20,000 nt of DNA from Desulfobacterales bacterium (GCA_040771865.1 JAXGZF010000004.1:461905-481904); one strand, 5' to 3'; positions 3,053-20,000 are shown, counted from the stretch's first letter. Numbers and translations: made by a program. The notes: generated by a model not told the origin, from the letters alone.

Positions 3053-3184
3053 AATTTCGAAACCTGAAAAAATAGGAAATTGAAAAAATACTTGAAATTG
3101 TTTCCGCTTGATGATAGCAGATTCTCTTTGGTTTTAAGCGTTCATTTTACACCAACTTAACTTTCTGAAAGGGATGGATCAAAA

Positions 3185-3547
3185 ATGACAAAGAAAGATC
3201 TGCAACTTGCTTACGCCCTGGCAATTGTTTGTTTCGTTGTGGGTATTATAAGCTATGCAGCCTTTCCTGCCAAAACGCCGGATACGCCGCTCCGGCTGAT
3301 GTTTCACAGCTCGGCAGGAAAGATTTGGTTCGACCACGATACCCACGCGGATCAGGCAGGTTACGGCATTTCCTGCGAGGATTGCCATCATTACACGGAT
3401 CCGTATAAGTGCGGCGAGTGTCATGCTTTGGAGAGCGACGACGAGAGTGTTCCCAAACGGTCGGATGCTTTCCACAAGCAGTGCATAGATTGCCACAAGG
3501 AAGGCGGGGCCGGCCCGGTGGACTGCAATGCGTGTCACGTCATGTAA
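3185..3547 (+). CDS. Tetraheme class III cytochrome c (c3-type) with N-terminal membrane anchor/signal, Rnf-associated
   Basis: Four CxxCH motifs (CEDCH, CGECH, CIDCH, CNACH), c3-like FDHDTH and AFH distal His motifs, hydrophobic N-terminal helix. First gene before rnfC. Confidence 0.93.
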   Translation: MTKKDLQLAYALAIVCFVVGIISYAAFPAKTPDTPLRLMFHSSAGKIWFDHDTHADQAGYGISCEDCHHYTDPYKCGECHALESDDESVPKRSDAFHKQCIDCHKEGGAGPVDCNACHVM

Positions 3548-3580
3548 GCCAGACGGTTGCAAAACCGCTGGCTTTTTTTT
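3546..3580 (+). terminator. Intrinsic terminator-like hairpin between the cytochrome gene and rnfC
   Basis: AAGCCAG(A)CGGTT-GCAA-AACCG-CTGGCTT stem with a GNRA tetraloop, ending in a run of 8 T. Confidence 0.75.
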
Positions 3581-3621
3581 CGCCCTTTGACACTAAAACG
3601 CGAAAAGAAAAAGGTTGAATT

Positions 3622-4887
3622 ATGATTAAAAGATCATTTGTCAGTTTAACAACGCCCTCTTTTGAGTATTCTGTCAAGGACAGCTCAATCAGCGGGCCGC
3701 AGAAGGTGGCGCCGTCCAAGACGGTAAGGTTGATCATCGAGAGTCCTTTTTCAAAGTCGATTGCGCTCAAAGCCGGAAACGAGATCAAGACGGGGCAGAG
3801 GCTGTGCATCGGGAACGCATATGCCGTATCCAGCGTAACAGGCAAGATCGCATCCGTCGAAAGATACGTCAACCAGGCCGGCAAGGCCTGTACGGCGGTT
3901 TTCATCGAGGTTGCGGCCTCCGAGCAGATCGACGATGCTTTTGCCAACGCGTGCAGAAGCAACCCCCGAAAGGCCGCTCTGGAATTTCTGGCCAATGCGC
4001 CCGGAAATCCGGCCATGAGTCTGTTTGATGAAGGCAAGGGACTGGACACCGTCGTCATTTGCGGTGCGGATTCGGATCTGGAAATCGTTACCCAGCAGCA
4101 GGTTCTGGAACAGTCGACCGACGCCGTTCAAAAAGGCATTGCGGCGATCAAGAAGATTACCGGAATCAGCAACATCGTGGCGGCAGCGCCTCAGAGTCTG
4201 ATGCAGAAGGCCGGTTCGATCGGCGCCAGCGCCAAGGTCATTTCAAACGCCTATCCGGCGGCCAATCCCTACTGGATCATGAAAGACATCATCGGCAAGG
4301 TGGTTCCCGCCGGAAAATGCTGGGAGGATCTCGGGGTCTGCATTCTCAGCGCCGAGGCAGCGGCTTCGTTCGGCAAGGCTTTCGATGAGGGGAAGGTGCC
4401 CACGGAGAAAATCATTACGGTTGTCAAGAAAAACGGCGGCAAGCTTCTGGTTTCGGCCAAGATCGGCACGCTGTTCAGCGACATTCTTGCTGCGGCCGGA
4501 ATTTCGGTCGCCGGCGGCGACCGGATTACTGTCGGCGGGCCGATGACCGGATATGCCGCATATGCCGAAGATCAGGCGGTCGAGGCCGGAACGGACGCCA
4601 TCATGGTTCAGGACGCGACCGAAATCACGCCGGTATCCGATTATCCCTGCATCAACTGCGGCGAGTGCAACCGCATCTGCCCGGCCAAGATTCAGGTCAA
4701 CATGCTGGTCAGATTCTGCGAGGCGGCCAAGTACCAGGATGCGGCGGATCTGTATGATCTGGATTCCTGCATTGAATGCGGCCTGTGCAGCTATGTGTGC
4801 GTGTCGAGAATGCCGGTTTTTCAATACATTAAATTGGCAAAACATGAACTTGCCCGGATGAATACAGCGGAGGCAACGAATGACTAA
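3622..4887 (+). CDS. rnfC: Rnf complex subunit C (divergent; FMN/NADH motifs degenerate)
   Basis: Two [4Fe-4S] motifs (CINCGECNRICP, CIECGLCSYVC), GGPMTG, N-terminal sandwich-like SSVTGKI, position before rnfD. Confidence 0.9.
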   Translation: MIKRSFVSLTTPSFEYSVKDSSISGPQKVAPSKTVRLIIESPFSKSIALKAGNEIKTGQRLCIGNAYAVSSVTGKIASVERYVNQAGKACTAVFIEVAASEQIDDAFANACRSNPRKAALEFLANAPGNPAMSLFDEGKGLDTVVICGADSDLEIVTQQQVLEQSTDAVQKGIAAIKKITGISNIVAAAPQSLMQKAGSIGASAKVISNAYPAANPYWIMKDIIGKVVPAGKCWEDLGVCILSAEAAASFGKAFDEGKVPTEKIITVVKKNGGKLLVSAKIGTLFSDILAAAGISVAGGDRITVGGPMTGYAAYAEDQAVEAGTDAIMVQDATEITPVSDYPCINCGECNRICPAKIQVNMLVRFCEAAKYQDAADLYDLDSCIECGLCSYVCVSRMPVFQYIKLAKHELARMNTAEATND

Positions 4888-5839
4888 TCAGAAGAAATTT
4901 ATCGTTTCACATGCGCCTTTCTGGCATGACGGCAGTTGTATATCCGCGAGAAGCTACAATACAATGCTAGCCGCTCTGCCGGCGCTGCTGTTTGGCATTT
5001 TCCAGTACGGCATGCCGGCGGTGGGAGTGATCACTTTTTCCATCGGCTGCGCCATGCTTTGGGAAGTGATTCTGAATTTTGCGATGAAGCGCTCCGTCAG
5101 CATCGGAGACGGCAATGCCGCGGTGATAGGCCTTTTACTGGCCATGCTGCTGCCGGCGACGGCGCCGTGGTGGTTTGTGCTGGTCGGAACCTTTCTGGCC
5201 ATCGTGGTCGGCAAGATGATCTACGGCGGCATCGGGGGGAATTCCTTCAACCCCGTGGCGGTGGCGGTGGCGATTCTGGGACTTTCCTGGGGCAATGTTC
5301 TCGATTTCAGCGAAGCTTATGTCAACTATGACTTCAGCTTTTCGATGTTCTACCCGCTGGCCGCGCTCAAGGCCTTCGGCGTATCGGCCGTCAGCGGCCT
5401 TAACGCCGGCGATTTGATGATGGGCAAGCAGATCGGCGGCATCGGAGCGACCTTCGGGCTCGGACTGATCATCGGCGGCATTTACCTGATCATCCGCGGA
5501 ATCATCCGCTGGGAGATCGCCGTGTCCTTCCTGGTCGGCGTTTTTGTCACGGCCCTGCTCTTCAACATGGCGGATTCATCCAAATACGCCGGAGCGGTTT
5601 TTCACCTGCTCTCCGGCTACACCCTGATCGGCGCATTTTTTCTGGCTACAGAGGATTCCTCATCGCCGGTCAATTTCGTTCCCATGATTCTTTATGGGTT
5701 GCTTGCCGGCTTGATGACGGTTCTGATTCGAAACATCGGGGCTTATGTGGACGGCGTGATATACGCCATTCTGGTTGCCAACCTTCTCAGCCCGGTTCTG
5801 GACAAGATCCGGCCTAAAGCCATAGGAAAGGTTGTCTAA
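4880..5839 (+). CDS. rnfD: Rnf complex subunit D
   Basis: Polytopic membrane protein with GLLLAMLLP, KMIYGGIGGNSFNP, GAFFLATE and DGVIYAILVANLLSP motifs of the RnfD/NqrB family. Overlaps the rnfC stop. Confidence 0.95.
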   Translation: MTNQKKFIVSHAPFWHDGSCISARSYNTMLAALPALLFGIFQYGMPAVGVITFSIGCAMLWEVILNFAMKRSVSIGDGNAAVIGLLLAMLLPATAPWWFVLVGTFLAIVVGKMIYGGIGGNSFNPVAVAVAILGLSWGNVLDFSEAYVNYDFSFSMFYPLAALKAFGVSAVSGLNAGDLMMGKQIGGIGATFGLGLIIGGIYLIIRGIIRWEIAVSFLVGVFVTALLFNMADSSKYAGAVFHLLSGYTLIGAFFLATEDSSSPVNFVPMILYGLLAGLMTVLIRNIGAYVDGVIYAILVANLLSPVLDKIRPKAIGKVV

Positions 5840-5840
5840 C

Positions 5841-6428
5841 ATGCGTGAATTAATCAAAATGGTTGTTGTGCTTACGGTTTTATGTTTGGTTTCCGGCGGA
5901 CTTCTCGCATCCCTCCGAAACGGAACCAAGGAACAAATAGAAAACCAGCAGCTGACCTTCGTCAAGGGGCCGGCGATCAAGACAATTTTCAGCGCCGCGA
6001 GCAATGACCCGATCGCCGACCGCTTCAAGCTTAAGGACGGCGACATCGAAAGAACCTTTTTTGTCGCCAAGATCGACGGCAAGGCCCAATCCGTTGCTTT
6101 TGAAACCTATGGAAAAGGATTCGGCGGCGATATCGGCCTGATGGTCGGCGTCAATGTGAGTGACGACAAAATGGTCGGCGCCCAGGTGACCACCCACAGT
6201 GAAACCCCGGGCCTGGGTTCCAAGACCAAGGACGACCCGAAATTCTCGGGCCAGTTCAAAGGCATGGAACTCAAAGGCGATTTCAAGGTCAAGAACGATG
6301 GCGGGCAGGTGGATGCCATCAGCGGTGCTACGGTGTCTTCTCGAGGCGTTTCAGGCGCTTTGACCGAAGCCAGCACCGTGTATGCGCGTCTCAAAACTCA
6401 AATCGCTCAGAAACTTCAGGAATTTTAG
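5841..6428 (+). CDS. rnfG: Rnf complex subunit G
   Basis: N-terminal TM helix, GFGGDI, HSETPGLG and covalent-FMN motif DAISGATVSS. ATG at 5841 follows AGGAAAGG. Confidence 0.96.
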   Translation: MRELIKMVVVLTVLCLVSGGLLASLRNGTKEQIENQQLTFVKGPAIKTIFSAASNDPIADRFKLKDGDIERTFFVAKIDGKAQSVAFETYGKGFGGDIGLMVGVNVSDDKMVGAQVTTHSETPGLGSKTKDDPKFSGQFKGMELKGDFKVKNDGGQVDAISGATVSSRGVSGALTEASTVYARLKTQIAQKLQEF

Positions 6429-6437
6429 GAGATAAAG

Positions 6438-7031
6438 ATGGCAAAGACAATAGTCCAAGAATTTACCAAAGGTCTGTGGGACGAGATACCTCCTTTTCGG
6501 CTGGTGCTTGGCCTCTGCCCCACGCTGGCGGTCACAAAGTCGGTGGAGAACGGCATAGGCATGGGGCTTGCTACCACGTTCGTGATCGTGGGCTCCAACA
6601 TCCTGGTTTCGATGCTGCGCAACATCATTCCGGCCAAGGTCCGCATCGCCTGCTTTATCGTGGTGATCGCGACCTTCGTGACCGTGGTCGAGCTGCTCAT
6701 GCAGGCCTATACCTACCCCCTGTTCCTGACGCTGGGTATTTTTATTCCCTTGATCGTCGTCAACTGCATCGTGCTGGGCCGGGCCGAAGCGTTTGCCTAC
6801 AAAAACGGCGTTCTGGCTTCTACGGCCGATGGCCTGGGCATCGGAATCGGCTTTACCCTGGCGCTGGCCTCTCTGGGCGCGATCCGAGAACTCTTCGGAA
6901 ACGGCACCCTGCTGGGCGCTCAGATCATGCCGGATGCCTTCCAGCCCTTCACTTTCATGGTTCAGGCGCCGGGCGCCTTTGTGTGCCTGGGATTGATGCT
7001 GTGTGTTATGAACATACTCGGCAAGAAATAA
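6438..7031 (+). CDS. rnfE: Rnf complex subunit E
   Basis: LGLCPTLAV, LGIFIPLIVVNCIVLGRAEAFA, GAIRELFG. RBS AGGAG. Confidence 0.97.
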   Translation: MAKTIVQEFTKGLWDEIPPFRLVLGLCPTLAVTKSVENGIGMGLATTFVIVGSNILVSMLRNIIPAKVRIACFIVVIATFVTVVELLMQAYTYPLFLTLGIFIPLIVVNCIVLGRAEAFAYKNGVLASTADGLGIGIGFTLALASLGAIRELFGNGTLLGAQIMPDAFQPFTFMVQAPGAFVCLGLMLCVMNILGKK

Positions 7032-7043
7032 GAGGAGAAAACC

Positions 7044-7616
7044 ATGGATTATATCCTTCTTGCAATAAGCTGCATATTTGTTAACAATATTCTCCTTGCC
7101 CAGTACCTTGGAAACTGTCCGTTTCTCGGCACCTCCAAGAGGATGGAGACTGCAACCGGCATGGCCATGGCGGTTGTATTCGTGCTGGTGATGGCCGGCA
7201 TCATTACCTGGGTGACGGAGTATTTTCTTTTGAGACCCCTGGGGCTTGAATATTTACGCACTATCGCTTTTATTCTGGTCATTGCAGCTCTGGTTCAGTT
7301 CGTGGAGATGTTCCTGAAAAAAAGCATTCCGGCCCTGTACGCGGGTCTGGGAATCTTCCTGCCCCTGATCACCACCAACTGCGCGGTTCTGGGCGTGTGC
7401 CTGATCAATATCAACGAGGAATACAATTTTGTGACCTCGCTGATTACCTCGATCAGCTACGCGGCCGGTTTTGGCCTGGCGCTGGTGCTGTTCGCCGGGG
7501 TGCGGGAACGCATTCTTCTGGCCCGGGTGCCCAAGCCGCTGCAGGACACTTCCATCGGTCTGGTCACGGCCGGCATGCTGGCCCTGACATTTTACGCATT
7601 TAAAGGAATGGTCTGA
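7044..7616 (+). CDS. rnfA: Rnf complex subunit A
   Basis: VNNILLAQYLGNCPFLG, IAALVQFVEM, LGIFLPLITTNCAVLG. RBS AGGAG. Confidence 0.97.
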   Translation: MDYILLAISCIFVNNILLAQYLGNCPFLGTSKRMETATGMAMAVVFVLVMAGIITWVTEYFLLRPLGLEYLRTIAFILVIAALVQFVEMFLKKSIPALYAGLGIFLPLITTNCAVLGVCLININEEYNFVTSLITSISYAAGFGLALVLFAGVRERILLARVPKPLQDTSIGLVTAGMLALTFYAFKGMV

Positions 7617-7657
7617 TCATTCTCCCGTTACCGGGATAACAATACAAGGAGGCCATT

Positions 7658-9763
7658 GTGATTGAAGCGATACTTTTTATGGTGGGATTAGGTGGCGTCT
7701 GCGGCGTCGTTCTGGCCGCAGCGTCCAAAGTCTTCTATGTTTACGAAGATCCCAGAATTGCTCAGGTTGAAAACTGCATGGCGGGCGCTAACTGCGGCGG
7801 ATGCGGCTATGCCGGCTGCTCGGCGGCCGCGGTGGCCGTCGTCACCGGTGCGGCAGCGGCCAACGTCTGCATCGTCGGCGGCGTGGAATCCGCGACCAAG
7901 GTTGCGGCGGTCATGGGATTGGAAGTCGGCGGCGCGGAAGTTATCCGCTCCTATAATTACTGCCGTGGCGGAGACCGTGCGGACAATCGTTTTGAATATA
8001 TGGGCGTTGCCAGCTGCCAGGCTCTGGCTGCTCTTTACGGCGGGCAGCGAGAATGTCATGTGGGCTGCCTGGGTCTGGGCGACTGCGTCAAGGCCTGCAC
8101 TTTCGGCGCGCTTGAGATCGGACCGGATGGTTTTCCGGTGGTGATCGCGGAAAAATGCGTGGGCTGCGGCGCCTGCGAACGGGCTTGCCCCAAGAGCATC
8201 ATGAAGGTTCGGACCATGTCTCAGCGGCTGCTGGAATTCAATGAGGACGACGGCCGGCTGGCGCCCTGCGCGCAGACATGTCCCGCCCAGATCAATATTC
8301 CGAAGTACATCGACCAGATCCGGAACGGAGATTACGAGGGCGCGGTCGAGACGCTTCGCGAGAGAAACCCCCTGATCCTTTCCTGCGGCCGGGTCTGTCC
8401 CCATCCCTGCGAGACCTACTGCCGCCGCAGTGTCGAGGATGAGGCCGTTTCCATCAACCAGCTCAAGCGGTTTGTGGCCGACTACGAGCTGAACTCCGGC
8501 CGAAGATTCCCTGTTTCCTGCGCTCCGGACACCGGAAAGAAGGTCGCCGTCATCGGCGGCGGTCCGGCCGGTTTGAGCTGCGCGTTCTTCCTCCGCCGTC
8601 TCGGGCACAGCGTGACGATCTTCGATATGATGCCGGAGCTCGGCGGCATGATCCGGTACGGCATCCCCGAATACCGTCTGCCCAAGAAGGTTCTGAAGTG
8701 GGAATGCGACGGGTTCCTCAAGATGGGCATCGAGGCCAAGATGAACGTGCGGCTGGGGAAGGATTACGATCTGACCTCCCTGGTGGCGGCCGGCTACGAT
8801 GCGATCTTCCTGGGAATCGGCGCCTGGAGGGACTACGATCTGGGCGTTGAAGGCGAAAACCTGGGCAATGTGTATACCGGCATCAGCTTCCTGACCCGGT
8901 TCGCCCTGGATCAGCAGACCAACGAAGACAAACATACGGATATTCCGATCGGCAAGCAGTGCGTGGTGGTCGGCGGCGGCAACACGGCCATCGACTGCGT
9001 CAGAACGCTCAAGCGGCTGGGCGCCGACCAGGTGACCCTGCTCTATCGCCGGACCCGCGCTGAAATGCCCGCCAACATGGTGGAAATCGAGGCGGCCGAG
9101 CACGAGCACATCAAGTTCCACTTCCTGGCGGCTCCCACCAGGGTGATCGGCGATGAAAGCGGAAACGTCAAGGCCATCGAATTCATCAAGATGGAGCTCG
9201 GCGAACCCGATGCTTCCGGACGAAGAAGACCGGTTCCGATCAAGGGTTCTGAAACCGTTCTGGAATGCGACATGCTGGTTTCGGCCATCGGCCAGGGCCC
9301 GGATGTTTCCTTTGCTCAGCAGGAACCCGGCAAGCGCATGGCGGAGCTCCAGATCACCAAGTGGAAGACCATCGACGCCGTGCATCCGGAAACGCTGCAG
9401 ACCAACATTCCTTATGTGTTTGCAGCAGGCGACGCCCAGACCGGCGCTTCCCTGGTGGTTGAGGCCATCGGCGGCGGCCGAAGGGCCGCGCGTTCCATTC
9501 ATCTGTATCTGAACGGCCAGAAGGTGACGCCGCCCCCGAACTCTCTGTTCAAGCGGCATATCGACGGCTCGATCATGGACAAGGTGCCGGGCATCATCAC
9601 AACGCCGCGCGTCAAGATGCCCGAGTTGGAAGTCGAAGAGAGGATCAAGACCTTTGATGAAACGGACCTCTGCATTACCGAGGAAGAGGCCACTCGTGAA
9701 TCCCATCGGTGCCTGAACTGCTGCCAGTTCTGCTACAATCCGGATAAAACCGAGGCAGCCTGA
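7658..9763 (+). CDS. rnfB: RnfB fused to a GltD/NfnB(SudA)-like FAD/NAD(P)H oxidoreductase
   Basis: About aa 1-185 are RnfB (TM helix, GANCGGCGYAGC, GCLGLGDCVKAC, CVGCGACERACP). The rest is GltD-like (APCAQTCP, CGRVCPHPCE, GGGPAG, GGMIRYGIPEYRLP, GGGNTA, YRRT, C-terminal RCLNC). GTG start after AAGGAGG. Confidence 0.93.
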   Translation: MIEAILFMVGLGGVCGVVLAAASKVFYVYEDPRIAQVENCMAGANCGGCGYAGCSAAAVAVVTGAAAANVCIVGGVESATKVAAVMGLEVGGAEVIRSYNYCRGGDRADNRFEYMGVASCQALAALYGGQRECHVGCLGLGDCVKACTFGALEIGPDGFPVVIAEKCVGCGACERACPKSIMKVRTMSQRLLEFNEDDGRLAPCAQTCPAQINIPKYIDQIRNGDYEGAVETLRERNPLILSCGRVCPHPCETYCRRSVEDEAVSINQLKRFVADYELNSGRRFPVSCAPDTGKKVAVIGGGPAGLSCAFFLRRLGHSVTIFDMMPELGGMIRYGIPEYRLPKKVLKWECDGFLKMGIEAKMNVRLGKDYDLTSLVAAGYDAIFLGIGAWRDYDLGVEGENLGNVYTGISFLTRFALDQQTNEDKHTDIPIGKQCVVVGGGNTAIDCVRTLKRLGADQVTLLYRRTRAEMPANMVEIEAAEHEHIKFHFLAAPTRVIGDESGNVKAIEFIKMELGEPDASGRRRPVPIKGSETVLECDMLVSAIGQGPDVSFAQQEPGKRMAELQITKWKTIDAVHPETLQTNIPYVFAAGDAQTGASLVVEAIGGGRRAARSIHLYLNGQKVTPPPNSLFKRHIDGSIMDKVPGIITTPRVKMPELEVEERIKTFDETDLCITEEEATRESHRCLNCCQFCYNPDKTEAA

Positions 9764-9788
9764 CGCCTTCAGGATATAAATAAGGTAT

Positions 9789-9819
9789 AAAAGCGGCCCT
9801 CAATGAGGGCCGCTTTTTT
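9789..9819 (+). terminator. Intrinsic terminator of the rnf operon
   Basis: AAAAGCGGCCCT-CAATG-AGGGCCGCTTTTTT directly after the rnfB stop. Confidence 0.9.
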
Positions 9820-15076: not shown

Positions 15077-15418
15077 ATGAATAAACGAAAACCCCACACC
15101 GATTTGAATGCATTCAAGCAGCTTTTCCGCCGCGGTACGGCGAGAGTTATCACCGCAACGGCGCGGAAAGGGGCTGTCGCCATGGGTTTCATGGATGAGG
15201 AGGATATTCTTTCGGTCGTTAACCGCCTGGGTCCCGAACACTTCTACAAGTCCATGACCATACACGGCAGCCACAAGATCTGGCAGGATGTGTACCGGTA
15301 CCAGGATGACCAGGATAATGCCCTTTACATCAAATTGCAGCTGTCTTCGGACAGCCGGAAAGCCGTTCTGATTCAGATGAAAAAAGACGAGGGAAAAGAT
15401 GAACAGGATAAAGCTTGA
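15077..15418 (+). CDS. mqsR: MqsR-family toxin (RelE-fold mRNA interferase)
   Basis: KPHTDL, ITATARKGA, FYKSMT, KIWQDVY and LYIKLQ motifs typical of MqsR. Confidence 0.92.
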   Translation: MNKRKPHTDLNAFKQLFRRGTARVITATARKGAVAMGFMDEEDILSVVNRLGPEHFYKSMTIHGSHKIWQDVYRYQDDQDNALYIKLQLSSDSRKAVLIQMKKDEGKDEQDKA

Positions 15419-15926
15419 TTGCCCGGTCTGCGGCGCCGGTACGCTGACCCGGCATGTCGGAACCGAAACCTTTGAATACCGTGGGCAGACCCGGACGATT
15501 CCGGATTACGCGACCTGGGTGTGCGATGCATGCGGAGAGTCCGTCGTCGACGCCGGGTCTCTGAAAGCCTCGGGCAGAATATTGAAGGATTTTCAGCGCA
15601 AGGTCGACGGCCTTCTGACCGGTCAGCAGATCAGGGAAATCCGCGCCAGGCTTGGCCTCACCCAGGAGCAGCTGGCCGACATCATCGGCGGCGGACTGAA
15701 AAGCGTGGCCCGCTACGAGTCCGGGCAGGTATGCCAGAGCCGGGGCATGGACAACCTTCTGCGCATTCTGGATGCCTATCCGGAAACGCTCAGGATCATT
15801 CAAAGAAAGGAACGGCCGGTTCAGGAATCGGCCAAGGTCGTTTACATCGAGGATGCGAGAAACAAAAATGCCTATCGATTGGCGGGCAGGACCTTTGAAA
15901 CAGGGGAGGTCGGTTATGGCTTCTAG
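15399..15926 (+). CDS. mqsA: MqsA-family antitoxin with a C-terminal extension (putative ChAD)
   Basis: Zn finger CPVC...CDACGE and XRE HTH (IRARLGLTQEQLADIIGGGLKSVARYESG), followed by about 40 extra residues. Overlaps mqsR by 20 nt. Confidence 0.93.
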   Translation: MNRIKLDCPVCGAGTLTRHVGTETFEYRGQTRTIPDYATWVCDACGESVVDAGSLKASGRILKDFQRKVDGLLTGQQIREIRARLGLTQEQLADIIGGGLKSVARYESGQVCQSRGMDNLLRILDAYPETLRIIQRKERPVQESAKVVYIEDARNKNAYRLAGRTFETGEVGYGF

Positions 15927-16419
15927 ATTCCAGATCGGCTCGATTCGCCTGGTCGAGGCTCATTTTTCACTCAACCGTCAGTTCAAATGGGAAAGCGGAA
16001 AGCCGGTCGAAATTCCGCAGAACGTCGAGATCAAATATCAGCAGATCAAGGAAAAAAGCATCCGCGTGCTCGTCTCGGTTTCCTCTGTTTCCGATCAGCA
16101 GCCTTTCCGGTTTTCCGTCGCCTGGGAAGGTTCGTTCGTGTTCGAAGAAAAACCCCGGAAAGAAGAACTGGAGCGCATCGCCCACATCCATTGCGCATCC
16201 ATCATGTTTGCCTATATTCGAGAGTCCGTGGCCGACCTGACCCGGCGCGCCAGCCTGCCCGCCCTGAATCTGCCCCCTTATAATTTTGCCGCCCTGTACG
16301 AGGAAAACAAAAAATCGGCGCTTTCGGCAACCCCGCGAAAAATCCGCAAAAAGCCGGAGGCCTTGCAGAAGCCGTCCGCCCCGAAGCAGCCGAAGGACGC
16401 GAAGATTCAAGAGAGCTGA
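15916..16419 (+). CDS. SecB-like chaperone of a TAC system (167 aa)
   Basis: ATG 15916 after GGAGG, overlaps mqsA by 11 nt. SecB-like C-terminal motif HCASIMFAYIRESVADLTRRASLPALNLPPYNFAALY. Confidence 0.88.
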   Translation: MASRFQIGSIRLVEAHFSLNRQFKWESGKPVEIPQNVEIKYQQIKEKSIRVLVSVSSVSDQQPFRFSVAWEGSFVFEEKPRKEELERIAHIHCASIMFAYIRESVADLTRRASLPALNLPPYNFAALYEENKKSALSATPRKIRKKPEALQKPSAPKQPKDAKIQES

Positions 16420-16845
16420 TTCACCCCGAAGCAAAGATCGAAACGAAGGTATTCTCTGCAATGCCTTCGTGAACTGTGCGCCCTTGAGGTTCATAAAACA
16501 GCCGGAAGCAGGTTTTTTCAAAAGCCTGCCAATTATTCGATCTACGGCCCCAGAGCGGCGGCCCTTTGCCGCATCGAATCATTCAGAACTCCGTTGCTAA
16601 TCCGCATTGCATAATCGATGTTCAGGAAAACAGCCTGCGCCGGCCGATTTTCATTGACAGCCGCGCTCTTAGGTTCTACATAAAACTCTTTGCTAACCAT
16701 TACTTAATCTGGTTTTCGCGCCGGGCTTTCCATGAACCACCCCTGTTCGACCCGCGCCTTCCGCATGCATTTTCGCATCGCGGCTTGAAGACGCCGCCCG
16801 ACGATTGGTATATTTCAGCAGGCATTGTTCTTTGATGGAGGCCGT

Positions 16846-17823
16846 ATGTCGAACCATCTGGTATGGGAGCGTTTCTGCTGGTTTGATTCCCAGGTAAGGG
16901 CCGCGAAATATCCCAACGCAAGCCGCCTGGCCGAACACTTCGAACTGTCTTCCAAGACCGCCCGGAGGGACATCAATTTTTTGCGAGACCGTATCGGCGC
17001 CCCCCTGGAATACTGTCCTGTCCGCAAGGGGTACTACTATACGCAGGATTCCTTCGAACTTCCCCGGCTTCAGGTGAGCCCGGAGGAGGTGCTCTCCATC
17101 CTGCTGGCAAAACGCCTGCTCTCCCGTTCCGCCGACGGCATGATCAGCAGGTCCATTCAGATGTTCGGCAGGAAGCTTTTAGCCCAGGCCGGCCATCCGG
17201 GGCTGACCGAAACCGCGATGGACGAATCCTTTTCCGCCGTCTGGAACGCCTATTCTCCAACCCAGTCCCAAATCTTTCAAAAAACCGCCGACGCCCTGCT
17301 TTGCGGCAAACCCCTTGAATTCACCTATCGTTCGCCGGCCGGGTGGCAGACCCGACGCATCGTCGAGCCGCACCACCTCCAGCACTACATGGCCAGCTGG
17401 GTCCTGATCGCCTGGTGCCGAATGCGAAACGACTGGCGGAAGTTCTACCTGGCCCGCATCAGCGATCTTGCGGTTCTGGACGAGCCGTTCGAGAAGAAGC
17501 CCGCTCCGGTCTGGAACCATCTTCTCGAAGGGGGCTTCGGCATCTTTCAGGGAAACGACCTGGTGGAAGTGACGCTGCGGTTTACTCCCTTTCGGGCCGG
17601 ATGGGTCCGCGAACAGAGCTGGCATCCGGACCAGAAAATGCAAACTCTTGCCGACGGAAGCCTGGAAATGACTTTGCCGGCGGCTGATTTCCGGGAAATC
17701 CGAATGCGCATACTTCAGTTCGGCGCGGACGTGGAGGTGATCGGCCCGGCGGAGTTGAGAGACGAGGTGGCCGAAGAGGCCCGGCGGTTGACGGCCTTGT
17801 ATGAAAAACAGCCGAATGAATAA
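16846..17823 (+). CDS. WYL-domain transcriptional regulator (wHTH-WYL-WCX)
   Basis: N-terminal HTH LAEHFELSSKTARRDINFLRD, WYL core RIVEPHHL...WVLIAWC..RNDWRKFYLARI, C-terminal ILQFGADVEVIGPAELR. ATG 16846 after GGAGG. Confidence 0.95.
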   Translation: MSNHLVWERFCWFDSQVRAAKYPNASRLAEHFELSSKTARRDINFLRDRIGAPLEYCPVRKGYYYTQDSFELPRLQVSPEEVLSILLAKRLLSRSADGMISRSIQMFGRKLLAQAGHPGLTETAMDESFSAVWNAYSPTQSQIFQKTADALLCGKPLEFTYRSPAGWQTRRIVEPHHLQHYMASWVLIAWCRMRNDWRKFYLARISDLAVLDEPFEKKPAPVWNHLLEGGFGIFQGNDLVEVTLRFTPFRAGWVREQSWHPDQKMQTLADGSLEMTLPAADFREIRMRILQFGADVEVIGPAELRDEVAEEARRLTALYEKQPNE

Positions 17824-17872
17824 ATTTGGGCCTTTTGGGAAAAATTCAGGCGATGTGAAAAAATATTTTGAA

Positions 17873-17909
17873 CCTGGGACGCTATATGTCCGGGGCAGGG
17901 GAGTATGAT
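17873..17909 (+). promoter_or_regulatory. Candidate WYL-box promoter
   Basis: Pseudo-palindrome CCTGGGAC-N7-GTCCGGGG (17873-17895) followed by a -10 TATGAT (17904-17909), with no canonical -35. Confidence 0.55.
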
Positions 17910-17960
17910 GCACATCGTACGATGGCCCCATATTCCATAAACATCACCCCGGAGGAAGCA

Positions 17961-18065
17961 ATGAACATTACTCGAAGGAAATTGCTCAAGGGTCTGCCAG
18001 CTCTGCTGGTTTCAGGCGTTGCGCTCAGATCGCGGACCGCTGAAAGCGCCATCCAAGGGCTTTAA
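17961..18065 (+). CDS. 34-aa peptide consisting almost entirely of a twin-arginine (Tat) signal; microprotein or truncated gene
   Basis: RBS GGAGG, then MNITRRKLLKGLPALLVSGVALRSRTAESAIQGL*. Confidence 0.5.
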   Translation: MNITRRKLLKGLPALLVSGVALRSRTAESAIQGL

Positions 18066-18094
18066 AGCAAACAAGAATCCTTGTCGACGATTTC

Positions 18095-18172
18095 GGAGGC
18101 CGCATGTCGAATCATCTGGCATTGTGGGATCGGTTCCACGTCTGGACGTTGCTCGGGAAATTGAGGGAATAG
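18095..18172 (+). pseudogene. Remnant 5' end of a second WYL regulator gene
   Basis: 18095-18136 aligns to 16837-16875 (RBS plus first codons of the WYL gene) at 34/39 nt plus one inserted codon. MSNHLALWDRF versus MSNHLVWERF, then a stop at 18170-18172. Confidence 0.7.
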
Positions 18173-18266
18173 AACGAAAATATGATGGACAGTTTCAGGT
18201 GGTGTTCGAAGCAATCCGGCAGGGCTGAAGGAAGAAGAAAAACCACAGCTGAGGATCGGTTTCTAA
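18145..18266 (+). pseudogene. Frameshifted C-terminal fragment of an ORF6N-domain-type protein
   Basis: DVAREIEGIERKYDGQFQVVFEAIRQ, frameshift, LKEEEKPQLRIGF*. Resembles the KYDxQFxxVFxAIRQL...KRxIGF tail of ORF6N proteins (recognised from memory). No N-terminal domain or start. Confidence 0.65.
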
Positions 18267-18436
18267 TCAAACAGGAGGCTTGCAAGGGCCGGATATGAGT
18301 GGATTCAGGTTTTCCTATAATCGGAATCGGCTTCAGTCATCGACAAACGGCGATAAGGTAAATGTGATTAAACACCCAGTTGGAATTTCGGTTTAAATTC
18401 GTGCTCAACCTTTTTAAAACGGTAAAAGGAGGGATC

Positions 18437-20000
18437 ATGGAACAATTATTGGCCCATAAAAATCAATCATTGATTTCCCATTTAGAAGGGGTGAGCCAAA
18501 AATCGGAAAGTTTTGCAGCGGCGTTTGATGCTTCAATACAGGGGAAGGTTGCCGGTATCCTACATGATATCGGTAAGGCCGAATCTGAATTTCAGAAACG
18601 TATCAATTCAAACGAAAAAGATGGTGAAAAACAACCCCATGCTCACCATGCCGCTGCCCATGCCCTCTATGGATGCAACCCAGCTCAGTGGCCGATTGCA
18701 ATCGCTGTCAATGGCCATCATGCAGGACTCCATAACCGTGGTAATGTCGACCAATCCGCAGGCAAGTACAATGAAAAGGTCAAAATGTGTTTGGAAAAAA
18801 TCAGAGAAACAGACCCTGACTTTACAATTCCAACATCGTCGGGGATGTTGCCGGACTGGCTCAAGGAGCTTGAATTCTTCCCGGGCAACAAAGGAAACGG
18901 TTGGTTGGCCACTGATCTTTTTACTCGTTTCCTATTCAGCGCCTTAATCGATGCGGACCGTCTTGATACAGAGGAACATGCGTCAGATGGGGATAAAAAA
19001 ATTGAGGCCAGGCGGTGGGAATCGTTTGCTCCCGAAATCTTACTGCCGCGTCTGGAAGACGAACTGAGGGAACGGGCTCATAAGGCAATATCTGAGGGAA
19101 AGGCTTCCAAAGAAGTCATGACCGTTCGGCAGGAAGTGGGTGCCTGTTGCCGGGAAGCCGCTGCCAAGGAACGGGGGCTGTTTTCTCTAACTGTCCCGAC
19201 CGGCGGCGGCAAGACATTGGCATCCATACTATTCGCCCTTTGCCACGCTGCCCACCATAAAAAATCCGCTCCGGAAAGCAATCATTTCCGGCGCATCATT
19301 GTGGTAATCCCCTATCTCAGCATTATTCAGCAAACCGCCAAGGAACTCCGGGATATTTTCGAGTCCGATGAGTTGAAAAAAGGGCGCATGGTCCTGGAAC
19401 ATCATTCCCAAGTGGAAGACGAGCCGGAGCCGGCAGGGAAGCAGAAAAACAAGAAGGAGGTCGAACCGTTCTATGACAGCCTTTCCGAACGTCGGCGCCT
19501 GGCGGCCGAAAACTGGGATGCTCCTATTATAATAACCACGAGTGTACAGTTCTTCGAATCACTCTTCTCGCGCCGTCCAGCCAAGGCCCGCAAACTCCAC
19601 AACATTGCTCAGTCCATTGTTATTTTTGACGAAATCCAGACACTGCCGCCGCTCATGCTCCAGCCGATTCTGCACGTCCTTTCTGAATTGGCGAATCCCC
19701 AAAGGCCTTATGGGTGTTCGATGGTCTTCTGCACAGCTACCCAGCCGGCTCTGCATAAAAGCGATGATTTGCCGACCGGGCTTGATCATGTCCGCTCCAT
19801 AGTTCCACCGGAAACAGCGCGAGAACACTTTGCATCTTTACGCAGGGTGACTTATCGATGGCCTGAAACGGATGAAAGAATTTCATGGGAAGAAATCGCC
19901 ACTTCAGTATCGGAGCGCGGTGTCAACCAAGCCCTGATTGTCGTCAATACCCGCAAGGCCGCGCGTGATCTTCACCGGGCATTCAGCGACCACCTTGGAG
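18437..20000 (+). CDS. cas3: CRISPR-associated HD nuclease/helicase Cas3, type I-C-like (3' end outside window)
   Basis: Own translation from ATG 18437 (RBS AGGAGG), open to the window end. Contains AH...SHL, LHDIGK, GHHAGL, FSALIDADRLDT, PTGGGKT, IPYLSIIQQ, VLEHHS, ENWDAP, KLHNIA, FDEIQTLP, TATQP, IVVNTR. Confidence 0.96.
   Translation, partial: MEQLLAHKNQSLISHLEGVSQKSESFAAAFDASIQGKVAGILHDIGKAESEFQKRINSNEKDGEKQPHAHHAAAHALYGCNPAQWPIAIAVNGHHAGLHNRGNVDQSAGKYNEKVKMCLEKIRETDPDFTIPTSSGMLPDWLKELEFFPGNKGNGWLATDLFTRFLFSALIDADRLDTEEHASDGDKKIEARRWESFAPEILLPRLEDELRERAHKAISEGKASKEVMTVRQEVGACCREAAAKERGLFSLTVPTGGGKTLASILFALCHAAHHKKSAPESNHFRRIIVVIPYLSIIQQTAKELRDIFESDELKKGRMVLEHHSQVEDEPEPAGKQKNKKEVEPFYDSLSERRRLAAENWDAPIIITTSVQFFESLFSRRPAKARKLHNIAQSIVIFDEIQTLPPLMLQPILHVLSELANPQRPYGCSMVFCTATQPALHKSDDLPTGLDHVRSIVPPETAREHFASLRRVTYRWPETDERISWEEIATSVSERGVNQALIVVNTRKAARDLHRAFSDHLG

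Follow-up and report, generated by a model that had tools for sequence, protein, structure and literature searches.

Rnf complexes of Desulfobacteraceae include a form called the 'D. toluolica Tol2-type', a description that Dörries et al. 2016 credit to Wöhlbrand et al. 2016. The accessible text of Dörries et al. (PMC5109826) gives this form an RnfB of about 700 amino acids (aa) with nicotinamide adenine dinucleotide (NAD)-binding sites and a 15-kDa cytochrome in the gene cluster, states that its RnfC requires an unidentified donor or acceptor other than NAD, and reports that its subunits were found by proteomics in D. multivorans. A 2025 study (PMC11887813) uses the name Rnf2 and, in its accessible portions, assigns the complex to the Desulfobacteraceae core genome, describes its formation as abundant and constitutive, and views it as a link of the NADH and ferredoxin pools. 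As far as the accessible text of the two papers goes, RnfC of this form is without the NADH-dehydrogenase and SLBB domains. Here we analyzed an operon that almost certainly belongs to the same class. It lies in a 20,000-nucleotide (nt) stretch of DNA from a Desulfobacterales bacterium (GCA_040771865.1, G000 C4:461905-481904), which is called the window and whose numbering is used for all coordinates. We propose, with somewhat less than even confidence, that the encoded complex is a reversible, Na+/H+-coupled NAD(P)H:cytochrome c oxidoreductase.

Seven closely packed genes run on the plus strand from 3185 to 9763 in the order cytochrome-C-D-G-E-A-B, with all six Rnf subunits assigned from Pfam and NCBIfam hits. 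The features are listed below (FMN, flavin mononucleotide).

3185..3547, plus strand: tetraheme class III cytochrome c, 120 aa (PF02085, E 4.5e-12, 46.6 bits against a cut-off of 22.9)
3622..4887, plus strand: RnfC-like subunit, 421 aa, with the RnfC fold and two [4Fe-4S] motifs and without the FMN/NADH motifs
4880..5839, plus strand: RnfD, 319 aa (PF03116, E 1.2e-85)
5832..6428, plus strand: RnfG, 198 aa from a TTG start, with an ATG three codons further in (NF045876 RnfG_DVU2794, 259.7 bits)
6438..7031, plus strand: RnfE, 197 aa (TIGR01948, 252 bits, above the cut-off)
7044..7616, plus strand: RnfA, 190 aa (TIGR01943, 246.4 bits, above the cut-off)
7658..9763, plus strand: RnfB, the whole fusion protein, 701 aa
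7658..8242, plus strand: RnfB module of the fusion, about residues 1-195, with a membrane helix, an FeS domain and two [4Fe-4S] clusters (PF04060 and Fer4 families)
8255..9763, plus strand: NfnB/GltD-like module of the fusion, about residues 200-701 (PF14691, E 3.6e-25; PF07992, E 4.9e-33)
9789..9817, plus strand: terminator-like hairpin, a 13-bp stem followed by a T-rich run, 26 nt past the rnfB stop

Motif states were judged from alignments to solved Rnf chains (A. woodii RnfC; 9eri_D and 7zc6_D; 9eri_B and 7zc6_B). In the RnfC alignment, the window sequence 'LANAPGNPAMSL' stood opposite 'GLGGATFPTHVKL' of A. woodii RnfC, and 'CGADSDLEI' stood opposite 'NGAECEPYL'. Both the glycine-rich GxGGAxFPT FMN/NADH loop and the ECEP motif were absent at the aligned positions. 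RnfC also scored below the curated cut-offs of TIGR01945 (155 bits against 246) and Complex1_51K (PF01512; 21.1 against 31.2), and the Pfam search found no SLBB match in it. Two CxxCxxCxxxC motifs were retained (C343/346/349/353 and C383/386/389/393), and the AlphaFold2 model (predicted local distance difference test, pLDDT, 90.9) gave a Foldseek template-modeling (TM) score of 0.82 to A. woodii RnfC versus 0.65-0.68 to NqrA. The fold of RnfC is preserved and its FMN/NADH cofactor residues are gone; judged from these residues, the protein could bind neither NADH nor FMN.

We found a matching loss in RnfD. In A. woodii RnfD, the accessible text of PMC11889175 places a covalent FMN on T156 and has riboflavin held by N123 and D249. 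Alignment to 9eri_D and 7zc6_D put Tyr158 of the window RnfD at the position of the FMN-bearing T156, and the riboflavin-ligand positions were occupied by N124 and E258. The other cofactor sites of the membrane and periplasmic subunits were in place. The periplasmic FMN domain of RnfG retained SGAT with T167 as the flavinylation Thr, and RnfG exceeded the cut-off of 205 bits of NF045876, which is an exception model. The membrane [2Fe-2S] cysteines were present in RnfE (C27 and C110) and RnfA (C25 and C113), and the T-N-C motif of RnfA was retained. An initial annotation made from the sequence alone had noticed the lost flavin motifs of RnfC and RnfD, the intact RnfG, RnfA/E and Fe-S sites, the flavoprotein carried by RnfB and the cytochrome heading the operon, and every item proved correct, the two losses now by alignment to solved Rnf subunits.

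RnfB is a fusion in the order membrane helix, FeS domain, two [4Fe-4S] clusters, Fer4_20 (two further [4Fe-4S] clusters), Pyr_redox_2 and a C-terminal tail. Residues 1-204 aligned with the solved RnfB chains 9eri_B and 7zc6_B. The fused module, with Rossmann folds for flavin adenine dinucleotide (FAD) and NAD(P)H, scored 88.4 bits for PF14691 and 115.2 bits for PF07992. The best solved relatives of residues 180-690 were NADPH flavoproteins of the Nfn/Stn type (E 1e-122 to 1e-99), with E values of 1.2e-122 for 9bov_A and 8e-101 for NfnI 5jca_L. After the second Rossmann strand, Y463-R464-R465 ('YRR') matched the aligned solved Nfn relatives, and we take these arginines to be an NADPH-type feature. 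Residues 200-625 were recognized as NfnB/GltD family; the whole-protein NCBIfam equivalogs scored below cut-off (TIGR01316, 414.8 against 471.75), which is what a fusion would be expected to give. The GltD-like flavoprotein recognized earlier in RnfB is thus confirmed by its solved relatives as an NADPH-type module.

The distribution of these states was examined in 400 sampled genomes of the phylum of the window and in its own genome; rnfD was present in 166 and an RnfC relative in 159 of the 401. The counts refer to 158 loci, made up of 149 listed non-self RnfC matches, seven loci from Desulfobacterales metagenome-assembled genomes (MAGs), locus L128 and the window; 33 further RnfC matches lie outside this sample. 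A search of named genomes returned 16 loci, and nine of these from Bacteroidota (L009-L017), which matched only a 20-residue Fe-S motif, were dropped before counting. Each open reading frame (ORF) was defined as running from one stop to the next; assignment relied on BLASTP searches with the window proteins, and alignment on MAFFT. RnfC or RnfD was cut by contig ends in nine of the 158 loci, which were left out of the 149 readable ones.

Among the 149 readable loci, the RnfC and RnfD motifs were both lost in 79, both kept in 70 and mixed in none, and the motif-less class comprised 80 of the 158 loci. All 70 readable canonical loci had Thr at the RnfD FMN column; RnfD of L173 and L176, reading 'SSATVLG', kept it. 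On a tree of RnfE plus RnfA (141 rows, quick search), the motif-less class formed one clade that required a single change (Shimodaira-Hasegawa-like approximate likelihood ratio test 100, branch length 0.30) and covered 28 family codes of the phylum sample. Because the RnfC and RnfD losses are common to 80 of 158 Rnf loci forming one clade, they are not chance. The joint loss is real and stable, yet it is one old event and not repeated co-evolution: since all states map to one branch, it counts as a single event and yields no independent pairs, and independent co-variation of the two losses was rejected.

The RnfB-GltD fusion was found in 40 of 62 motif-less loci with a readable rnfB versus 0 of 71 canonical loci, and rnfC had a multiheme cytochrome gene just upstream of it in 55 of 76 motif-less versus 0 of 72 canonical loci. 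Each trait needed four changes on the RnfE plus RnfA tree. Fusion without the cytochrome gene occurred in 14 motif-less loci and the cytochrome gene without fusion in 16, so that neither is obligatory for the RnfC/RnfD motif loss and both are confined to the motif-less clade. The initial annotation had tied the losses to one another, to the fusion and to the cytochrome gene. The first tie held in 149 of 149 loci, as one event, and the cytochrome gene is upheld as a companion of this kind of Rnf; the fusion was missing from 22 of 62 motif-less loci and the cytochrome gene from 21 of 76.

The RnfG motif was kept in 76 of 77 motif-less loci, a count limited to this class because the window RnfG is too distant as a BLAST query for many canonical RnfG proteins. 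When NF045876 was applied to RnfG of six other clade loci, five scored above 205 and one scored 185. The window falls in a subclade of 27 rows, all of whose operons have the upstream cytochrome gene and, wherever rnfB was readable, the fusion. In some operons of this subtype rnfB was absent or split, and a full-length fusion was found elsewhere in four of five such genomes. The operons of L018, L031, L033, L036, L006 and L115, in the motif-less clade and mostly of the window subtype, end after rnfA without rnfB. At L026/L027, a 367-aa unassigned ORF and a separate 477-aa GltD-like gene follow rnfA.

We then analyzed the cytochrome, whose gene lies 74 nt upstream of rnfC. Its heme motifs (C64/C67/H68, C76/C79/H80, C100/C103/H104 and C114/C117/H118) were invariant in 41 of 41 aligned relatives, as were H51 and H54. 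An N-terminal hydrophobic segment (about residues 8-28) was also conserved among relatives, which suggests that the N terminus may be a membrane anchor and not a cleaved signal.

RnfD, RnfG, the cytochrome and four hemes were predicted together as a complex from our own row-matched alignments. The model scored 0.76 versus 0.00 for the best of three controls, and swapping out RnfD abolished the score. Of 80 solved complexes, 58 attained the mark that it reached, as did 2 of 110 mismatched pairs; these counts serve only as a rough guide to this model, in which own alignments and a riding ligand were used. Three runs shared at least 77% of contacts, and the pLDDT of the partner was at least 80. 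In the predicted interface, the cytochrome helix (residues 1-32) lies on RnfD 44-63 and the heme domain on RnfD 139-166, including Y158; the confident contacts of the cytochrome are with RnfD, not RnfG. Searches of solved structures with RnfC, RnfD and Foldseek turned up no comparable complex, so that the prediction is unlikely to be a copy of a known structure. The cytochrome is thus predicted to be seated on RnfD, above the loop that lost the covalent FMN. This agrees with the link of cytochrome and complex in the initial annotation, with the docking on RnfD and not on RnfG.

Inside the clade, Thr was found at the RnfD FMN column in 8 of 21 loci without the cytochrome gene versus 1 of 55 loci with one. 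This anticorrelation is a weak hint and comes mostly from one family. Loci of family f27 (L056, L066, L068, L070 and L135, for example) belong to the motif-less clade and have the fusion and no cytochrome gene; at the FMN column their RnfD keeps a Thr, although with changed neighboring residues ('SETPLM', 'AQTPLM'), and might still be flavinylated.

The operon is also represented in RNA libraries. Contigs of four metatranscriptome runs from one anaerobic-digester study span 3145-9773 at 99% identity or more, and contig depth was 0 at 2700-2956, just upstream; two runs, X5 and X6 (share 0.11), were left out of the cover figures. The cover fits a single transcription unit and its expression, and proves neither transcription nor transcript ends; because the contigs come from one study, we claim no transcript start or end. 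In all four runs the leftmost contig starts at 3145-3160, which is 25-40 nt before the cytochrome start codon, and cover stops at 9707-9773, just short of the hairpin at 9789-9817. The hairpin comes from a consensus scan only, in which the regional total of such sites did not exceed that of shuffles. A consensus scan for promoter-like sites, whose counts likewise did not exceed shuffles, found none on the plus strand upstream of 3185.

The proposed reaction starts from the observed gene content, motif states, conservation, clade structure and RNA-library presence, from which we infer the steps, partners and direction of electron transfer. NADPH would reduce the FAD of the NfnB/GltD-like module on RnfB, and the electrons would then travel through the two [4Fe-4S] clusters of the module and the RnfB clusters to the membrane [2Fe-2S] cluster of RnfA/E. 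In solved Rnf, this cluster is the ion-coupling step. From there the electrons would move onward to the periplasmic side, where RnfG would carry its covalent FMN, and end at the tetraheme cytochrome, which would be a membrane-anchored seventh subunit on RnfD above the former FMN loop. Its hemes could pass electrons to periplasmic partners such as QrcABCD, or receive them in reverse. This path (NAD(P)H-RnfB-RnfA/E-RnfG-cytochrome) appears to be the simplest that the remaining cofactors allow. The initial annotation had suggested a rewired complex running between a periplasmic cytochrome c3 and NADP(H) or ferredoxin, with RnfC and RnfD largely structural. Its losses, its NADPH-type RnfB, its cytochrome companion and its path are retained here; the structural role of RnfC and RnfD and the claim of novelty are not.

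The host genome (2.98 Mb, 98.3% complete) has a single rnfD and one ApbE. QrcABCD is present, with all four subunits above the NCBIfam cut-offs. The genome also encodes another small c3-like protein, 12- and 20-heme proteins and one [FeFe] hydrogenase, and it has an octaheme cytochrome of the tetrathionate-reductase type that is accompanied by a cytochrome b. Four of its genes are FdnG-like (about 1020-1050 aa), and two of these have an in-frame TGA. No match to [NiFe] hydrogenase, dsrA, dsrB or aprA was found in the 98.3%-complete genome. Within its order, the host may be a member that does not reduce sulfate and is possibly syntrophic or electroactive.

Several observations weigh against an NAD(P)H:cytochrome c oxidoreductase whose electrons leave at the cytochrome. 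We know of no biochemical measurement of the reaction for any member of the Rnf2 class. The cytochrome gene is not adjoining in 21 of 76 clade loci, 14 of which bear the fusion, and the RNA evidence consists of assembled contigs, which cannot prove transcription. The controls of the complex model were non-membrane proteins, so that helix-on-helix packing was not specifically controlled. According to the accessible text of PMC4215793, dhcA mutants of D. alaskensis G20, whose operon is of the same clade, are without the phenotypes of rnf mutants. None of the 158 loci had lost any of the eight Fe-S cysteines of RnfC, and most motif-less loci retained the riboflavin ligands in RnfD (N in 68 of 80, D/E in 79 of 80). 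Divergence was expressed relative to RnfE plus RnfA for pairs from a common divergence band, the pairs not being independent. It rose from 1.16 in canonical to 2.08 in motif-less loci for the former FMN/NADH part of RnfC and from 1.22 to 1.70 for RnfD, with no rise for RnfG (1.57 and 1.67); for the Fe-S domain of RnfC it was 1.54 and 1.61, the same constraint as in canonical loci. Two terminal flavin sites are lost, and the riboflavin and Fe-S segment between them appears to be still under selection. Because the RnfC cysteines and RnfD riboflavin ligands are conserved, RnfC and RnfD are not merely structural, contrary to the earlier supposition, and the cytochrome, which is predicted to dock on RnfD, points the same way. 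These features argue that the C/D branch may still carry electrons, which an exit at the cytochrome leaves unexplained.

It is possible, although we consider it unlikely, that the canonical U-shaped path is kept with its ends swapped. Electrons from NAD(P)H at RnfB would pass through RnfA/E and the RnfG FMN to a heme standing in place of the RnfD FMN, then to the RnfD riboflavin, the RnfC [4Fe-4S] clusters and a cytoplasmic acceptor such as ferredoxin, so that the complex would be an ion-coupled ferredoxin:NADP+ oxidoreductase. This accounts for the conserved RnfC cysteines and riboflavin ligands, for an RnfC Fe-S domain constrained no less than the canonical one, and for a modeled heme domain on the RnfD loop 139-166, the site of the former FMN. 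The scarcity of Thr at the FMN column where a cytochrome gene is present also fits, weakly and mostly through one family, as does the view of Dörries et al. that RnfC needs a donor or acceptor other than NAD (accessible text of PMC5109826). However, such a reaction would answer no evident cellular need alongside soluble Nfn.

The reading as a cytochrome c-linked oxidoreductase can be extended to the motif-less clade. In G422, a genome of another family, all ten rnf primers of D. alaskensis G20 (PMC4841214 Table 1) matched exactly and in order. The operon that carries them, L128 (G422:C5:260000-272500), lies in the motif-less clade and has a decaheme cytochrome gene at its head; the two motif positions of its RnfC are occupied by 'LKSLGIDLRV' and 'NPDPGI', the FMN Thr is absent from its RnfD ('...MLINPLT'), and its RnfB, of about 310 aa, is unfused. 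Because L128, with all ten primers, has no RnfC motifs and an unfused RnfB, the Desulfovibrio complex of the G20 type shows no recognizable NAD(P)H site. Desulfovibrio rnf mutants do not grow on H2, formate or ethanol. As a more tentative proposal, which we regard as rather less than an even chance, the whole clade (RnfG_DVU2794-type, 80 of 158 loci including the G20 type) would consist not of ferredoxin:NAD+ oxidoreductases but of ion-translocating, cytochrome c-linked ones. A heme of a membrane-anchored cytochrome c, fixed on RnfD as seventh subunit, would replace the RnfD FMN, and RnfB alone would set the cytoplasmic substrate, which would be NADPH with the NfnB-like module and ferredoxin without it.

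Membrane-bound flavin-based bifurcation or confurcation, in which the NfnB-like FAD would split the NADPH electron pair between ferredoxin and a membrane chain to the cytochrome, is suggested by the fused module, since the solved proteins nearest to it are bifurcating subunits that bind NADPH in the Nfn, NfnABC and Stn complexes. We judge it improbable: the operon has no NfnA-like second branch, the two [4Fe-4S] clusters of the module and those of RnfB form one line, an arrangement like that in the linear small subunit of glutamate synthase, and the 22 of 62 clade members without the fusion manage without the module.

Still less probable is an ordinary ferredoxin:NAD+ oxidoreductase that reduces NAD+ at RnfC, as usually drawn for sulfate reducers. 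Six subunits in canonical order would fit it, and the accessible texts of PMC11887813 and PMC4215793 treat Rnf2 as a link of NADH and ferredoxin and the G20 complex as a ferredoxin:NADH oxidoreductase. However, RnfC is without the glycine-rich loop and ECEP and has Complex1_51K below cut-off, RnfD is without the FMN Thr, and the losses hold across all 80 clade members.

A decaying, non-functional Rnf remnant, which the lost cofactor motifs and the faster divergence of RnfC and RnfD might suggest, is hardly credible, since all frames are intact, the clade extends over 28 family codes with the remaining cofactor sites invariant, the operon is the sole Rnf of a 98%-complete genome and is present in RNA libraries, and accessible texts report Rnf2 subunits in the D. 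multivorans proteome (PMC5109826) and strong phenotypes of G20 rnf mutants (PMC4215793). Quinone reduction at RnfD/RnfC as in Na+-NQR (an NADH:quinone oxidoreductase that translocates Na+) was also set aside, since RnfD here is missing the covalent FMN by which riboflavin is fed in NQR.

Desulfobacteraceae, the hosts of Rnf2, have an important part in the marine carbon and sulfur cycles, and Rnf2 is still drawn in metabolic models as a ferredoxin/NAD link. On the motif evidence, NAD+ could not be reduced at RnfC of the window, nor at that of the Desulfovibrio complex. If electrons from NAD(P)H or ferredoxin instead reach periplasmic cytochromes with ion translocation, calculations of ATP yield would need revising, and it would become understandable why Qrc and Tmc-type complexes are formed constitutively in species that use neither H2 nor formate. 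Should the clade-wide proposal be true, energy-conservation schemes of sulfate reducers and their relatives would be revised, and for species that lack periplasmic hydrogenases the missing donor to the periplasmic cytochrome/Qrc route would be named. That the cytochrome sits on RnfD, as predicted, is a concrete hypothesis open to structural test. We regard these additions, namely the linked RnfD loss, the single clade to which the Desulfovibrio type belongs, the riboflavin and Fe-S sites that are still present and the predicted cytochrome seat, as leads, not proof.

The operon is flanked by FtsZ and a radical-SAM gene upstream and an acyl-CoA synthetase gene downstream. A 672-aa open frame antisense to the rnfB fusion (7688-9706, minus strand) has no family support and is most likely a side effect of the G+C-rich coding sequence on the other strand. 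Elsewhere in the window, an MqsR-like toxin (PF15723) and MqsA-like antitoxin (PF15731) pair is followed by an ORF with a SecB-like domain (15077-16419), a trio that would recall three-part toxin-antitoxin-chaperone modules. At 16825-19999, a WYL plus WCX regulator gene precedes a Cas3-like HD/helicase gene that runs off the window, whose end is the contig end.

Compared with canonical Rnf, the complex has the six subunits in the order C-D-G-E-A-B, the RnfG Thr, the RnfA/E cysteines and the two [4Fe-4S] clusters of RnfC, but not the FMN/NADH site of RnfC or the covalent-FMN Thr of RnfD. Na+-NQR (PMC4014512, PMC12174285) offers a parallel rewiring, since NqrA is without NADH/FMN sites and an NADH-oxidizing flavoprotein, NqrF, takes the position of RnfB. 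It differs in that NqrA is without the Fe-S clusters kept here, NqrB keeps the covalent FMN lost here, ubiquinone is the acceptor and a cytochrome is absent; NqrF is also unrelated to the GltD/NfnB module. In the NCBIfam search no NqrF was found in the window and all Nqr models scored far below their cut-offs. The two-subunit 'Nqr/Rnf-like' complexes, proposed to work one way from NAD(P)H to extracytosolic acceptors (PMC10979944), resemble the window complex in that their RnfD-like subunit has no flavinylation Thr, the RnfG-like partner is flavinylated and an NAD(P)H module is present; unlike it, they have the NAD domain fused to the RnfD-like protein and are without RnfA/E, RnfB, RnfC and a cytochrome.

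Cytochrome-linked Rnf is represented by M. acetivorans, where the accessible text of PMC4023990 has RnfG pass electrons to a cytochrome and NAD(P) remain unused. That system (PMC4023990, PMC11024163) shares with the window a cytochrome c gene co-transcribed with rnfCDGEAB, the absence of NAD(P) at RnfC and RnfG as the proposed donor. Its MmcA, however, is a 7-heme protein akin to octaheme tetrathionate reductase and not to c3, and its RnfB is unfused and fed by ferredoxin; the window subunits scored far below the archaeal NCBIfam cut-offs. The DhcA-RnfCDGEAB(-ApbE) operon of Desulfovibrio (D. alaskensis G20; D. vulgaris DVU2791-2798) is closer, with shared clade membership, motif losses, heading cytochrome gene and NF045876-type RnfG. 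It differs in having a decaheme and not a tetraheme cytochrome, an unfused RnfB, and ApbE inside the operon, whereas here ApbE is elsewhere in the genome. Bearing likewise on Desulfovibrio, PMC11434368 notes rnf operons whose last gene is for an FAD-dependent oxidoreductase, together with a 10-heme cytochrome that co-occurs.

The architecture of the window operon is identical to that of Rnf2: a 701-aa RnfB (about 700 aa in Rnf2) with an NAD(P)-binding flavoprotein domain, an RnfC with neither Complex1_51K above cut-off nor an SLBB match, and a small cytochrome gene in the cluster, here for a 120-aa tetraheme protein and in Rnf2 for a small acidic one. The nearest named relative, with an RnfC 93% identical, is a Desulfobacteraceae MAG. 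Unlike the described Rnf2 hosts, the host of the window has no dsrA, dsrB or aprA match in its genome. The initial annotation had called the concerted cofactor loss uncharacterized. The large NAD-binding RnfB, the RnfC without the NADH domain and the cytochrome gene were already in print (PMC5109826, PMC11887813), whereas a literature search that covered few subscription papers found no printed statement of the RnfD Thr loss or of a missing NADH site in Desulfovibrio RnfC. The Rnf2 descriptions in the accessible text of those papers mention neither the loss of the Thr from RnfD nor the retention of its riboflavin ligands, nor a docking of the cytochrome on RnfD as predicted here.

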